The notes beneath the pieces are model-generated. The model did no database searches and was not told where the DNA came from. It worked only from the letters and a program-made list of their open reading frames with translations. Source: a virus (Duplodnaviria > Caudoviricetes). From it: a stretch of 64,000 bases of DNA. The stretch lies in IMG/VR virus record IMGVR_UViG_3300037483_000693, positions 137 through 64,136 of that record; one strand, written 5' to 3'. Of this stretch, positions 50,250 to 53,802 are shown in pieces. A program made the position numbers and the translations under genes. Each line of letters starts with the position of its first letter. Positions within the stretch are counted from its first letter, which is position 1.

Positions 50250-50545
50250 CGGGGTACCGCCTCGGTGCCAGTGATCCAGGCCGAGTAGCTCAGCCGCACC
50301 TCGAACAGGTGCGCGTCGATCCGGGTCCAGTCACCCCGCGGCGGGGTCGGCGGCAGGTCCAGCGTCGGATTCCCCGGAGGCCCGCCACCGAGGCGGACAC
50401 CCTGCTCCTTGGCCAACGCCACCGCTTGGGCGTGCAGCAGGTCGGTGATGGCCGACCGGCCGCGCTGCTCGACCGGGACCTGCGCGTAGAAAGTCCACGT
50501 ACCCCATCGCCCGCTCACCGGGATGCCCCCACGGTCGCTCCCCAT
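50246..50545 (-). CDS. Hypothetical protein
   Basis: TAATG overlap with the terL stop. Confidence 0.5.
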   Translation of the reverse strand: MGSDRGGIPVSGRWGTWTFYAQVPVEQRGRSAITDLLHAQAVALAKEQGVRLGGGPPGNPTLDLPPTPPRGDWTRIDAHLFEVRLSYSAWITGTEAVPR

Positions 50546-53058
50546 TACATCCACCTCACTCGCGGCCTGGCGCCGAGATCCCGCTCGGCGCACAGATACC
50601 GTGCGCAGTCGCATCCATGATCGTCCACCTTCAATGGCGTCTCCTTCGTCGCCTTCTCCTGCCCCGCCTGCGCGGCGCCCGGGTCCCACACGTAGCCGGG
50701 CAGCTCCTCCACCAGACATGTCGGCTTCTTCGCCTCCTCGAGCTCCGGGTCCCGCTCGACCAGCGAATCCCGCAGGATGTACAGGCGGGGCCTCCCGTCA
50801 CCGGCTGGCCGGAGCCGGGCCTGCATCGCCTGGATGCCGTCCTTGACCGTCTTGTGTGCCGCCTGCGTGGACATGCCCAGGTGCCGTTCCAGGGTCGCCC
50901 TGTCCTCGGCGTCGTGGTCGCAGATCACCGCGGTGGGGCGGGGCTCCAGCCAGACGCCGTCGCCGTCGCGCATCTGGGCGAGCATGGTCCGGGCGTGGTC
51001 CTCGACGAGCCGTCTTGTGTGGTAGATCTCCCGGTACATCCACAGCCGGCCTTCGCCGTCCTCGGCCCACCACTGTGCGCTGAAGGGGTTCGTGAAGCCA
51101 AAGTCCACCACGATCCACCTGGTCCAGTCGGCTGGGATTTCGAACCGGTCGACGAGGTGGATCGCAGGGTCGTACCCGTCGTAGATGATCCCTTCGGCGG
51201 CGACCCACTGGCCCCGTTCGAGCCGGGCCTTCCGGACCCCGGTCAGCCGGGACAGCTTCGCCAGATAGGCGGCGCCCGCGACCGTGGGCCGGCCGGTGGC
51301 CGGGTCGACGAGGGTCGGGTTGTCCGAGTGCCGGCAGTGGAGCATCCGGGTGTCGCCCCGGTCGCAGCGGACGTTCAGCCAGTGGGTGGGCTTGTCCGGG
51401 TTGGTGTCCGCGAGGAGCTGCTGGACCGGGGTACGCGCGTTCCGGAGCCGGGTCGTGAGGGCCTCCCAGTTGTCGGTGGTCAGCTCGATCGCTTCTTGGA
51501 CGAACACGCAGTTATGAGAAACTATCTCGTTGGCGTAGTACCAGGATTCAACCGTCTGGAGGTTGTAGACGTGCCCGCCCCGTCCCGCGTCAGCGACGCT
51601 GATCTTGACGATGCGATCCAGCGCTACCTCGCCCGCGAGGGTCGGCTGTCGATCATCGCTCTTTCGATCGGCGTCAGCGTGCCCCGGTTCAAGCGGGAGA
51701 TGACCGCCCGGGGCATTGCCTGGCGCACTCCCGCGGACACCCTTGCCGAGCGACAGGCGCGGATGCGGGTTGACCCCGAGTGGCAGCGCAATCTCGCCGA
51801 GGGTCGTCAGCGCACCGCCGAGATCTGGGGTCGTTCTGAGGCCAACCGTGAGCGGATGCGCCAGCTCGGGCGGGACGCTACTCGACGAAAGGCCGTCGGC
51901 CGCGTCAAGTCCCCCGATGAGTTGAGCGAACGTTCGATTACTCATCAACGCGGCCTGCTCAAGGTCTCGCCGTGTGCGATACAGGTCCGAGATTGGCTGG
52001 TCGAGCGAGGGGCGATCCCAGTCCTGGAACAGGCGTGTGGTCGTTACAACATCGACATAGCTGTGCCCCCCGTCGCCGTGGAAGTCCATCGGTACGGTTT
52101 CAACCCGCTCGGCGCGTCCCGAGCTGCGAGCCGAGAACGCAAGCGCACGCGCTACCTCGCGGATCGGGGCTGGCTGGTCTGCTATGTGTGGATCGGCCCG
52201 CGCGGACAATGGCTCTCGCCGGATGCGGCTAACTACGTGATCGCCCTCGCGCAGGCGGCCGAGCGCGACCCATCCCTGATCGGTGAGTACCGGGTGATTC
52301 GGGGTGCCTGTGAGCTCGTGGCCAGCGGCCGTGGTGATGGTGACGAGCTGACCTGAGTACGGCCGGGAGTAGCACCGCTCGATCGGCGACGGGCTCTCGA
52401 CCACGGTCCCGCCGACCACGCAGTCGTAATCGGAGGACATCACCCTGGTCGATTTGTCCATTCCGCCGAGGTTGATGGCGGACCCGTTGGTGTACCGGTA
52501 GGCGGCGGCCTCCTGCTGGGAGCCGCCGTAGAAGTGGACCAGCCCCGCTTCGAGGGCTTCGGGGATGACCTTCTCCCGCCAGGTGACCAGCGCGGTGGAC
52601 CCGAGGGAGGTGAGGGTCTTGCGGATGATCAGGCCGCGCATCCCAGGCCAGGCGAGGGCGAGGAGGCCCAGCAACTCGAGGGCCGCCCGGCTCTTGCCGG
52701 TGCCCGCGGGGCCTGAGAGGAGGACCTCGTCCTGGTCGGCGGTGAACACGTCGCGGGCCGCGCCGTGCGGGGCGTACAGGTGGACGCCGGGCCCGGCCGG
52801 ATGCTCGTCGGTGCTGGCCTGGTCGGGGTGGATGGGCAGGTGTAGTGAGGTCGGCAGGTGCACGCCGGGGATCAGGTGGGTGACGGTCTTGCCACCGGGA
52901 CCGGTCAGGACGATCCGGTCGCCGGCCGGGACGGTCGCGGTCCAGCCGGCCTTGCGCCACAGCCGGTGCCCGGAGTGGTCGAGGTCGTCCGCGGCGTTCC
53001 TGGCGGCCTGGGCGACCAGCCTGGCCACCCACCCACCTGGGGCCGCGGTCGTTGTCAC
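50545..53058 (-). CDS. terL: Terminase large subunit containing an intein (837 aa precursor, about 533 aa spliced)
   Basis: LLSGPAGTGKS (Walker A), IIRKT, spliced SSDYD|CVFVQEA (Walker B), DTNP, VDFGFTNP, DDHGCD. Confidence 0.92.
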   Translation of the reverse strand: MTTTAAPGGWVARLVAQAARNAADDLDHSGHRLWRKAGWTATVPAGDRIVLTGPGGKTVTHLIPGVHLPTSLHLPIHPDQASTDEHPAGPGVHLYAPHGAARDVFTADQDEVLLSGPAGTGKSRAALELLGLLALAWPGMRGLIIRKTLTSLGSTALVTWREKVIPEALEAGLVHFYGGSQQEAAAYRYTNGSAINLGGMDKSTRVMSSDYDCVVGGTVVESPSPIERCYSRPYSGQLVTITTAAGHELTGTPNHPVLTDQGWVALGRLREGDHVVSRIRREPLSARADPHIADQPAPIREVARALAFSARSSGRAERVETVPMDFHGDGGHSYVDVVTTTRLFQDWDRPSLDQPISDLYRTRRDLEQAALMSNRTFAQLIGGLDAADGLSSSSVPPELAHPLTVGLRTTPDLGGALTTLGEIALPLGVNPHPRLSLGKGVRGSAPGNAPGGHLPLEPGHADADRKSDDRQPTLAGEVALDRIVKISVADAGRGGHVYNLQTVESWYYANEIVSHNCVFVQEAIELTTDNWEALTTRLRNARTPVQQLLADTNPDKPTHWLNVRCDRGDTRMLHCRHSDNPTLVDPATGRPTVAGAAYLAKLSRLTGVRKARLERGQWVAAEGIIYDGYDPAIHLVDRFEIPADWTRWIVVDFGFTNPFSAQWWAEDGEGRLWMYREIYHTRRLVEDHARTMLAQMRDGDGVWLEPRPTAVICDHDAEDRATLERHLGMSTQAAHKTVKDGIQAMQARLRPAGDGRPRLYILRDSLVERDPELEEAKKPTCLVEELPGYVWDPGAAQAGQEKATKETPLKVDDHGCDCARYLCAERDLGARPRVRWM
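51511..52422 (-). mobile_element. Intein, 304 aa, without an in-frame endonuclease
   Basis: Block A CVVGGT, block B TGTPNHPV, block F HVYNLQT, block G IVSHN, +1 Cys. Confidence 0.92.
51571..52356 (+). CDS. Vsr/DUF559-like putative homing endonuclease encoded antisense within the intein (261 aa)
   Basis: GGAGG, 8 nt, GTG; N-terminal HTH-like segment, NUMOD3-like RSEANRERMR, then LEQACGRYNIDIAVPPVAVEVH...ERKRTRYLADRGWLVCYVW. Confidence 0.8.
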   Translation: MPAPSRVSDADLDDAIQRYLAREGRLSIIALSIGVSVPRFKREMTARGIAWRTPADTLAERQARMRVDPEWQRNLAEGRQRTAEIWGRSEANRERMRQLGRDATRRKAVGRVKSPDELSERSITHQRGLLKVSPCAIQVRDWLVERGAIPVLEQACGRYNIDIAVPPVAVEVHRYGFNPLGASRAASRERKRTRYLADRGWLVCYVWIGPRGQWLSPDAANYVIALAQAAERDPSLIGEYRVIRGACELVASGRGDGDELT

Positions 53059-53738
53059 AGTCGCGCTGCCGGGTCGATCTGCTCGGCGAGCGCACGCAAC
53101 TGGACGGGGATCATGGCCTGCGCCCGAGCGGTCTGCTCTGCGGTCAGGTCCAGGCCGTCGAGGACAGCGCGGAGGGTTTCCCCGACCATCGCGCCGACCT
53201 GCTCGGCGAGGGTAACGCGGCGCTCTTCGATGCCCATCCGGTGGGCGATCTCGCAGGCTTTCAGGAGCCGGTCCTGCGCTTTGCCGAGGAGTTCCACCCA
53301 CAGGTTCGGGTGGGCTTCTTCGGTGATGTCGGTGCCCGGGCTCTCGGTGGCCTGCTTGCTGACCTGCTTCGTGGTACCCCAGATCACGTCGTCCGCGGGT
53401 AGGTTGCGGACCTGGATCCGGTACCAGGCGACCTCCCCCGCCAGGTGGGCGATCTCGCCGAGGACGACCTCGGCCGGGTCGAGGCCGTCGATGGGCAGGC
53501 CGAGCGTGGTGGCGGCGGCCCGGGCGGCGAGCTCGGCGCGGGCCCGCTCGGCCGCGGTCTTGGAGCGGCGGGTGGCGCCGCCGTGGACCCGGCATGCCTT
53601 CCCGCCCGCCTCCGGGTAGGCGAGGCACGGGGCGGGCGGGCTGGTGCCTTTGCGGTGACCGCTGCAGGTCGGCACGCCGGGGGCGGTTTCCCGCTCGTGA
53701 CGGCTGCCGCAGCGGCGGCACTTCCGGACGGGACTCAT
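53055..53738 (-). CDS. terS: Terminase small subunit
   Basis: CxxC...CRVHGG N-terminus; GIEERRV; directly upstream of terL. Confidence 0.75.
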   Translation of the reverse strand: MSPVRKCRRCGSRHERETAPGVPTCSGHRKGTSPPAPCLAYPEAGGKACRVHGGATRRSKTAAERARAELAARAAATTLGLPIDGLDPAEVVLGEIAHLAGEVAWYRIQVRNLPADDVIWGTTKQVSKQATESPGTDITEEAHPNLWVELLGKAQDRLLKACEIAHRMGIEERRVTLAEQVGAMVGETLRAVLDGLDLTAEQTARAQAMIPVQLRALAEQIDPAARL

Positions 53739-53802
53739 GAGGGTCCAGCGTCCCGGGGGGACTCATGAGGTTCCGGGGATCCGGGGGGACTCATGAGGGT
53801 CC
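53730..53802. repeat. Three 17-bp repeats at a 28-bp period over the terS start
   Basis: GGGACTCATGAGG(G/T)TCC at 53730, 53758 and 53786; palindromic core CTCATGAG. Confidence 0.75.

Follow-up and report, generated by a model that had tools for sequence, protein, structure and literature searches.

A phage terminase large subunit intein with a probable Vsr-like homing endonuclease gene on its antisense strand

Introduction

Canonical bifunctional inteins carry a LAGLIDADG or HNH endonuclease in frame, and the inteins of the terminase large subunit (TerL) of mycobacteriophages are included among them (Kelley et al., 2016, PMC5050341). A different arrangement was presented by Gosselin, Arsenault and Gogarten (bioRxiv 10.1101/2025.01.02.630785, v2 Oct 2025), who describe full inteins with an "anti-sense VSR-like HEN" (homing endonuclease). 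Its Supplementary Table 1 lists 16 "VSR -1 ORF" inteins (ORF, open reading frame), all of them in MuF-like or putative minor capsid genes of actinophages from PhagesDB, and the fold of the antisense protein is reported to match 1CW0 (Z 10.6), with an HHpred match to 3R3P. The same preprint cites antisense LAGLIDADG endonucleases found in inteins between 1998 and 2002, and reports TerL inteins of the Vivi2 phage group with an out-of-frame endonuclease VII. Here we analyze a stretch of 64,000 nucleotides from a Caudoviricetes virus (positions 137 to 64,136 of IMG/VR record IMGVR_UViG_3300037483_000693; hereafter the window), in which the terL gene, on the minus strand, is interrupted by an intein whose DNA contains on the plus strand, in the same codon register, an ORF for a predicted Vsr-like nuclease.

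The design is therefore already known from phage head genes, and the window adds TerL as a new host gene for it. A first-pass annotation of the window, made from the sequence alone, had implied that the layout was novel, which the preprint contradicts; for MuF inteins, this independent work reaches the same reading as ours. Architecture and protein family are shared, with an unstructured intein frame and a Vsr-like antisense protein, and many of the phages listed there as "VSR -1 ORF" are tblastn matches of the plus-strand ORF of the window. Unlike those cases in minor capsid genes, the window intein lies in TerL, at the Walker B strand. The text of the preprint, in its available parts, mentions no promoter, Shine-Dalgarno (SD) sequence or start codon and includes no frame-by-frame test of selection, and the Salmonella, Pseudomonas, Escherichia, Idiomarinaceae and metagenome-assembled genome (MAG) carriers found here lie outside the coverage of those parts.

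Other systems share some traits with this locus. In fractured genes, a free-standing gene for a Vsr-like homing endonuclease is placed between the halves of a split intein (Dassa et al., 2009, PMC2677866), and a further relative is the I-Bth0305I or EDxHD family (Taylor et al., 2011, PMC3239194). As in these systems, a Vsr-like fold would act as an intein- or intron-associated homing endonuclease on a polypeptide separate from the splicing domain, and the ORF of the window is directly similar to I-Bth0305I (3r3p) in both profile and fold. Unlike fractured genes, in which the host gene is split into two ORFs and an antisense arrangement is unmentioned (PMC2677866), the window intein remains in one piece, as its endonuclease gene is encoded on the opposite strand. 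ShiLan-type insertions hide an HNH endonuclease, encoded out of frame, within phage methylase genes (Arsenault et al., 2025, PMC11855218); they are also in-frame insertions with a mobility nuclease in another frame of the same DNA, missed by annotation, but that nuclease is encoded on the same strand and is HNH instead of Vsr-like, the splicing domain is absent and the insert stays in the host protein. With the inteins of Kelley et al. the window shares a class-1 Hint domain and an insertion in a TerL ATPase motif, including a Walker B site (TerL1-e), whereas in those inteins blocks B and F enclose the endonuclease as a domain in frame, in one polypeptide with the splicing domain.

Results

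A class-1 intein interrupts TerL at the Walker B strand

The minus-strand intein (coordinates of all features are given in Table 1) is followed by a +1 Cys at 51508-51510 (...IVSHN|C, 51508-51516), and is matched by Pfam Intein_splicing (1.2e-9, 38.6 bits, cutoff 35.8) and by NCBIfam intein_Nterm. The insertion point corresponds to the first residue of the Walker B strand, because the TerL of Thermobifida phage P1312, which has no insert, reads continuously across the site (SSEYD-LVFADEATEL). Translation, family matches and the P1312 alignment thus confirm the intein as it had been placed by the first-pass annotation. Both extein halves match TerL PHROGs and share 59-69% identity with the P1312 protein. 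In 17 phage TerL genes among the matches listed, both exteins were matched in two pieces and the insert was absent; the closest phage TerL genes lack the intein, and its presence in TerL is sporadic.

The intein contains C1 and the block B residues T40-P-N-H43, being T40, N42 and H43 invariant in 59 relatives (alignment A3). In agreement with the first reading of this frame, no LAGLIDADG or HNH family was listed for it in a Pfam search at E<=1. In the AlphaFold2 (AF2) model, the Hint core (residues 1-70 and 262-304) has a predicted local distance difference test score (pLDDT) above 90 and resembles the Mtu RecA mini-intein (Z 13.6; root-mean-square deviation, rmsd, 1.6; 107 aligned residues). 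The middle part, of about 190 residues, had been described as featureless. This holds for residues 136-261, which are predicted to be disordered and have no conserved residue in the A3 consensus, but not for residues 71-135, which are partly ordered: residues 81-100, with a helix at 87-100, reach a mean pLDDT of 82-88, and residues 101-135 are modelled with low confidence. Considering that the catalytic blocks are intact and that TerL is essential, the intein is expected to undergo protein splicing.

The antisense ORF encodes a predicted helix-turn-helix and Vsr-like protein

The 261-aa ORF seen in the first inspection is confirmed, and it shares its triplets exactly with the intein, codon position 1 facing position 3. 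Both of its ends fall on splicing blocks, as had also been noticed: GGAGG and GTG are complementary to block F, and the segment EYRVIRG at the C-terminus is the exact complement of the block B residues TPNHPVL. The AF2 model of the protein, obtained like that of the intein from alignments of the same 59 loci, has a mean pLDDT of 91.5 and no disordered segment, and consists of helix-turn-helix (HTH) helices, long helices and an alpha/beta domain. In an exhaustive VIA search of 48,161 chains, only three matches of this model reached Z>=8, and all involve residues 130-253: Vsr (1cw0_A, Z 10.3, rmsd 2.9, 116 aligned), the catalytic domain of I-Bth0305I (3r3p_B, Z 8.8) and a DUF559 protein (3hrl_A, Z 8.7, rmsd 2.0). 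A Foldseek search with the two-domain model returned nothing at E<=0.001, with 3r3p ranked first (probability 0.99). The model thus predicts a restriction-endonuclease-like alpha/beta core for residues 130-253.

Profile comparisons point in the same direction. The profile of the ORF family matches PDB entries 3hrl (2e-4), I-Bth0305I 3r3p (0.011) and the tandem-HTH protein 2lvs_A (8.6e-7). Among 59 family members, Pfam MTES_1575 is found in 56 (best 2.5e-9) and DUF559 in 18 (best 5.4e-8), while HTH_58, HTH_7 and HTH_23 are matched in about half; the window protein alone matches MTES_1575 with E 0.0062 and 17 bits, under the cutoff of 38.2. The HTH-like N-terminus and the Vsr/DUF559-type core proposed from the sequence are in this way supported, and matches to nuclease families were found for the ORF family. 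Conversely, the NUMOD3-like segment proposed at the same time was not recovered: Pfam gives no match at E<=1, and the segment lies in a helical insert that occurs in only about 4 of 63 aligned relatives. The window protein keeps all the residues that are invariant in the family (Y159, N160, D162, A169, V170, E171, R192, G200 and W201). Regarding the EDxHD constellation, D162 and E171 are invariant and the position of the His depends on the subgroup, being "E-V-H" in the window and "GGxWH" in most relatives.

Frame openness and selection differ along the intein

A long open frame opposite a gene in GC-rich DNA may be only a non-coding shadow, in which case the real endonuclease would be the in-frame middle of the intein. 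The window itself agrees with this explanation, since its plus frame is open for 579 aa, well beyond the intein, and the intein-frame motif DFHGD is highly conserved; at 70% GC, with an extein-derived chance of 0.13 of finding zero antisense stops, openness proves nothing in the window itself. In the window, GC content at third codon positions (GC3) of the TerL frame is 0.9-0.98 in the exteins but about 0.7 within the intein, where that of the plus frame goes up to 0.75-0.84.

Relatives argue against a shadow. A search of IMG/VR yielded 309 relatives of the ORF, of which 80 were analyzed plus other loci; the resulting set comprises 89 loci, among which the window appears a second time as its own record, and there are in addition 9 MAG contigs from at least six phyla. 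The antisense ORF is present in 65/65 non-redundant representatives, with 219-319 codons, one TerL-hosted copy (L011) being possibly broken, and in every case its end precedes block B by 11-80 codons (mostly 14-38). No antisense stop (TTA, CTA or TCA in the intein frame) occurs in the 17,512 codons of these representatives, so the homologous inteins do not carry the stops that a spurious ORF could have shown. The exteins of the same genes have 403 in 29,128 codons, from which about 240 would be expected. Loci at 41-54% GC also keep the frame open, with per-locus P values from 0.11 to 2e-6, most of them <0.02.

Selection was evaluated on one codon alignment of 63 inteins (GC 0.41-0.73), by comparing the amino-acid identity of the same codons on both strands. 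The intein frame is the more conserved one in blocks G/F and B/A (for example, Asn 1.00 vs 0.55, Val 1.00 vs 0.30 and Gly 1.00 vs 0.42), whereas the plus frame is more conserved in the middle (Arg 0.97 vs 0.27, Gly 0.94 vs 0.30, Ser 0.88 vs 0.31, and 1.00 for Y, N and D of YNxD). Mean pairwise identity in the middle is 0.36 for the plus frame vs 0.23 for the minus frame, and in the Hint parts 0.43-0.51 for the minus frame vs 0.29-0.30 for the plus frame. The same is observed within the TerL-hosted subgroup, where identities in the middle are 0.49-0.79 for the plus frame vs 0.30-0.56 for the minus frame. The closest pair of TerL loci (L008 and L009) reaches 0.79 and 0.56, respectively, and the window compared with L008, L009 or L010 gives 0.49-0.51 and 0.33-0.35. 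Between L008 and L009, nucleotide differences at plus-frame positions 1/2/3 are 0.16/0.14/0.38 in the middle and 0.47/0/0 in the C-terminal Hint part. These comparisons support a frame-specific purifying selection that switches along the element, favouring the plus frame in the middle and, within the Hint blocks, the frame of the intein; selection is not confined to the intein frame. Furthermore, Pfam nuclease and HTH matches are confined to the plus frame, whose product is confidently modelled with a known nuclease fold, as opposed to the in-frame middle, predicted to be disordered. Low-GC relatives, frame-specific conservation and fold predictions make a shadow ORF extremely unlikely, and we reject it.

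Expression signals are embedded in the splicing blocks

The GTG of the window ORF (51571) is the complement of the block-F His codon, and in 62 of 80 loci the complement of this codon is a start codon (ATG 44, GTG 17, TTG 1). Codon choice at these positions departs from that of the exteins. The block-F His is encoded by CAT in 69% of cases vs 34% of extein His codons, and the block-F Leu by CTC, which gives GGAG on the other strand, in 82% of the representatives vs 29% of extein Leu codons. In block G, the Ile adjoining xHN is ATA in 61% (15% in exteins) and the Ile one position earlier is ATT in 56% (19% in exteins). Together these two codons read TATAAT on the plus strand at a fixed position; the hexamer is perfect in 12 of 65 representatives, agrees in at least five of six positions in 29 of 65 and often has TGn upstream, while another subgroup shows TATAAT about 19 nt further downstream. 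A separate expression of the putative nuclease is thus backed by an embedded start codon and SD sequence and, in relatives, by -10 signals.

A short patch is constrained in both frames

In nearly every relative, across GC contents of 0.41-0.73, the patch that encodes PVAVEV on the plus strand and DFHGDG on the minus strand has the plus-strand codons NCC RTC GCC GTG GAA RTC, with GCC in 62, GTG in 61, GAA in 58 and RTC in 61 of 63 sequences. Per-column identity is about 0.9-1.0 in both frames. Outside the patch, synonymous sites of invariant plus-strand residues are free (TAC/TAT, AAC/AAT, GAC/GAT, GCN). The plus-strand protein alone would permit GCN GTN GAR, and the intein frame alone would also permit Pro, Ser or Thr, Met and Lys on the plus strand; as only the intersection occurs, both frames, or a nucleic-acid element, must be constrained here. 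The fixed synonymous sites therefore speak against the initial view of DFHGDG as simply the shadow of the nuclease motif.

Relatives are widespread and mostly hosted by MuF genes

A protein search with the ORF recovered 16 homologues, some of them with HTH domains, and tblastn against GenBank phages gave 46 records, from Gordonia, Pseudomonas, Salmonella, Escherichia, Idiomarinaceae and Mycobacterium phages. Among the 40 matches listed, the coding sequence (CDS) under the match is annotated as MuF-like, minor-capsid, head-morphogenesis or hypothetical protein, and in the four GenBank phage records that were opened it lies on the strand opposite to the match. The ORF antisense to gp14 of Vivi2 is 36.9% identical to that of the window (E 4e-30); this phage, Fosterous, Affeca, Angelicage and Sampson, together with APunk, ViaConlectus, Keitabear, Sedona and Kewpiedoll, have matches antisense to MuF genes with E values from 4e-30 to 7e-8. 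A scan of genome contigs with one stringent pattern from alignment A1 retrieved 9 loci, a number that says little about frequency in bacterial genomes. The antisense gene is annotated in none of the five GenBank phage records inspected (0/5) and the tblastn matches show only the host CDS, so it is probably missing from many phage annotations. For instance, in Salmonella phage PhiSTP2 (L004, OL944023.1 6452-7204) and in L005-L007 GenBank annotates only the MuF or minor capsid CDS, and the unannotated antisense ORF has 250-304 aa, starting with ATG in PhiSTP2.

An alternative to be considered is that the ORF encodes a real, selected nuclease which is not, or not any more, responsible for the homing of this intein. 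The phage could have co-opted it, for instance to exclude competing phages, to process DNA or to evade defence, or it may be an endonuclease of the free-standing kind with targets elsewhere, to which the intein offers just a safe harbour. Purifying selection that is deep and family-wide agrees with this possibility, as does the apparently vertical inheritance of several VSR-type intein groups noted in the preprint (bioRxiv 10.1101/2025.01.02.630785), and in Streptomyces eurythermus an intact ORF is kept opposite a decayed intein. On the other hand, in 98 further loci the nuclease never occurs without an intein-like frame opposite: all of them have an open in-register frame over the length of the match, and intein blocks (C1..., TPNHPxLT, GHVYNLQT, NGIxxHN|C) are visible in nearly all. 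No free-standing relative was detected at this similarity level, being the S. eurythermus locus the nearest case. The usual insertion site is the MuF motif HPN|CRC, and the window and L008-L011 are in TerL; an association that spans at least two unrelated exteins and several insertion points is what would be predicted for a mobile unit of intein plus endonuclease. We consider a nuclease unconnected with the homing of this intein unlikely.

Some individual loci deserve mention. On the S. eurythermus chromosome (L001:4830-6197, GCA_043080785.1), among ordinary metabolic and regulatory genes, the ORF has 370 aa with extra HTH repeats, and the opposite frame lacks the N-terminal Cys, has TPDHPVLT as block B and ends in ...IIART, with ART in place of HN; the nuclease may have outlived its intein there. 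TerL-hosted relatives apparently use three neighbouring insertion points at Walker B (...YD|C-VFVQEA in the window and L010, ...DLVY|C-QEA in L008 and L009, ...YDLI|C... in L011; window 52400-52440, L008:3320-3340), which suggests shifts of a few codons. L011 (L011:2084-3253) may be a decaying copy: no block F was found in it, and from the beginning of the match its plus frame stays open over just 46 codons.

The terL gene and its neighbour

The TerL ORF extends over 50545-53766 on the minus strand. Translation probably begins at GTG 53058, in an overlap with the TGA of the upstream gene (GTGA); an alternative GTG is present at 52863. That upstream gene (53055-53738, minus strand, 227 aa) looks translationally coupled to TerL through this overlap; it begins with a Cys-rich CxxC...C..H stretch, and may encode the small terminase or an HNH-like partner. 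The C-extein (CVFVQEA, 51508-51500) has Gln-Glu (VFVQEA) where the intein-less TerL of P1312 has the canonical Walker B Asp-Glu (VFADEA).

Table 1. Features of the terL locus, in window coordinates.
Feature	Position	Strand	Remarks
TerL precursor gene, intein included	50545..53058	-	ORF list and sequence; start uncertain
TerL Walker A (GPAGTGKS)	52690..52713	-	From translation, aligned to P1312 TerL
Class-1 intein, 304 aa (C1...HN)	51511..52422	-	Between SSDYD and CVFVQEA; Pfam/NCBIfam matches, AF2 Hint core
Intein block B (TPNHPVLT)	52282..52305	-	Complement is EYRVIRG near the C-terminus of the plus-strand ORF
Intein residues 136-261	51640..52017	-	Predicted disordered, unconserved read-through of the antisense gene; pLDDT 38-55, mostly <50
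Intein block F (HVYNLQ, in GHVYNLQ)	51556..51573	-	Complement holds start codon and SD of the plus-strand ORF
Intein block G (NEIVSHN)	51511..51531	-	In relatives, complement of the Ile-Ile codons is TATAAT; poor match in the window
SD sequence (GGAGG)	51558..51562	+	8 nt upstream of GTG 51571; complementary to Leu-Gln in block F (HVYNLQ)
Antisense ORF, 261 aa plus stop	51571..52356	+	HTH and Vsr/DUF559/MTES_1575-like nuclease; candidate homing endonuclease
HTH region, ORF residues 9-46	51595..51708	+	AF2 helices; VIA HTH matches with Z 5-6.5 over residues 1-52
Nuclease domain, ORF residues 130-253	51958..52329	+	Structure matches to Vsr, I-Bth0305I and DUF559
Nuclease core motif YNIDIA..PVAVEVH	52045..52089	+	Y159, N160, D162, A169, V170, E171 family-invariant
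Doubly constrained patch, 15-18 nt	52069..52086	both	Plus P-V-A-V-E-V, minus D-F-H-G-D-G; fixed synonymous positions

Discussion

The locus is probably a two-strand selfish element, with splicing encoded on the minus strand and a homing nuclease on the plus strand, as the first-pass annotation had proposed; at the level of sequence, folds, open frames and frame-specific selection support it. In the proposed mechanism, the class-1 intein would be translated within TerL and remove itself by protein splicing, and most of the ~190 residues between the Hint parts, at least residues 136-261, would be a tolerated and largely disordered read-through. From the other strand an independent protein of 261 aa would be produced, with an HTH region for DNA binding at its N-terminus, followed by helical linkers and a nuclease of the Vsr/DUF559 type. 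It would be translated from its own GTG and GGAGG, complementary to splicing block F, and in many relatives its gene would apparently be transcribed from a -10 box complementary to block G codons. During co-infection, the HTH-guided nuclease would most likely cut intein-less terL near the SSxYD|xVFxxEA codons, and repair of the cut gene would copy the whole element in. Antisense transcription, nuclease activity, cleavage specificity, homing and efficient splicing are what we infer from the sequence.

Several observations weigh against this two-strand element. A sigma-70 promoter and terminator scan of the window at 51200-52700 found nothing and the -10 candidate of the window is weak, so the promoter argument rests on the relatives; the earlier idea that the AT-rich end of the intein hides an antisense promoter therefore stands for the family, with its TATAAT boxes, and is no more than a possibility in the window. 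The window subgroup has Asn at the position of the Vsr-like "WH" histidine of the family, with a His two residues past the catalytic Glu, and its nuclease activity may be altered or reduced. Moreover, the loci were collected via similarity to the plus-strand protein, which enriches them for intact copies; the search patterns and tblastn did not require a complete ORF. Finally, a near-identical pair of terL genes with and without the intein was not found, so recent mobility of the TerL copy of the window is unsupported.

In this sense, the window element might be a vertically inherited relic, in which the intein splices and the antisense gene, poorly expressed or catalytically weakened, is heading to decay. 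The weak or absent -10 region and the Asn in place of the "WH" histidine would fit such a relic, and at 70% GC the frame could stay open by chance (P ~0.13). Nevertheless, all the family-invariant residues are present, neither GGAGG nor GTG is damaged, purifying selection on the plus frame is seen in the TerL subgroup, and the variant with His after Glu is common to many intact relatives. Consequently, we regard a relic as quite improbable, and the two-strand element remains our preferred reading.

A stronger version of the two-strand element, possible although doubtful, is that the overlap is more than tolerated read-through and that the patch and the block F/G signals make a mechanically interlocked dual-coding unit. 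If this is true, the patch would be under protein-level selection in both frames, with the active-site strand PVAVE facing DFHGD, and DFHGD would be a functional motif of the intein insert that might stabilise or time splicing, or contact the nuclease or the DNA. The promoter, ribosome-binding site and start of the nuclease would be built from invariant block G/F codons. Losing either function would damage the other, and antisense transcription could modulate late terL expression.

What this locus adds to the known design is TerL as host, a wide distribution that is not limited to actinophages, expression signals set into the splicing blocks and a 15-nt patch constrained in both frames. With about 780 bp protein-coding on both strands, it would be among the longer natural cases of antisense dual coding in exact register, and it shows how a free-standing endonuclease gene can sit inside an intein while the host gene stays unbroken. 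Inteins of this kind may be mistaken for decaying or mini-inteins. The block F/G signals offer testable handles on how the nuclease would be expressed against the direction of late transcription, and new site-specific enzymes might be obtained from the nuclease family. Furthermore, the finding places TerL among the host genes of such inteins and supports the view that the splicing domain comes first and the endonuclease invades later.

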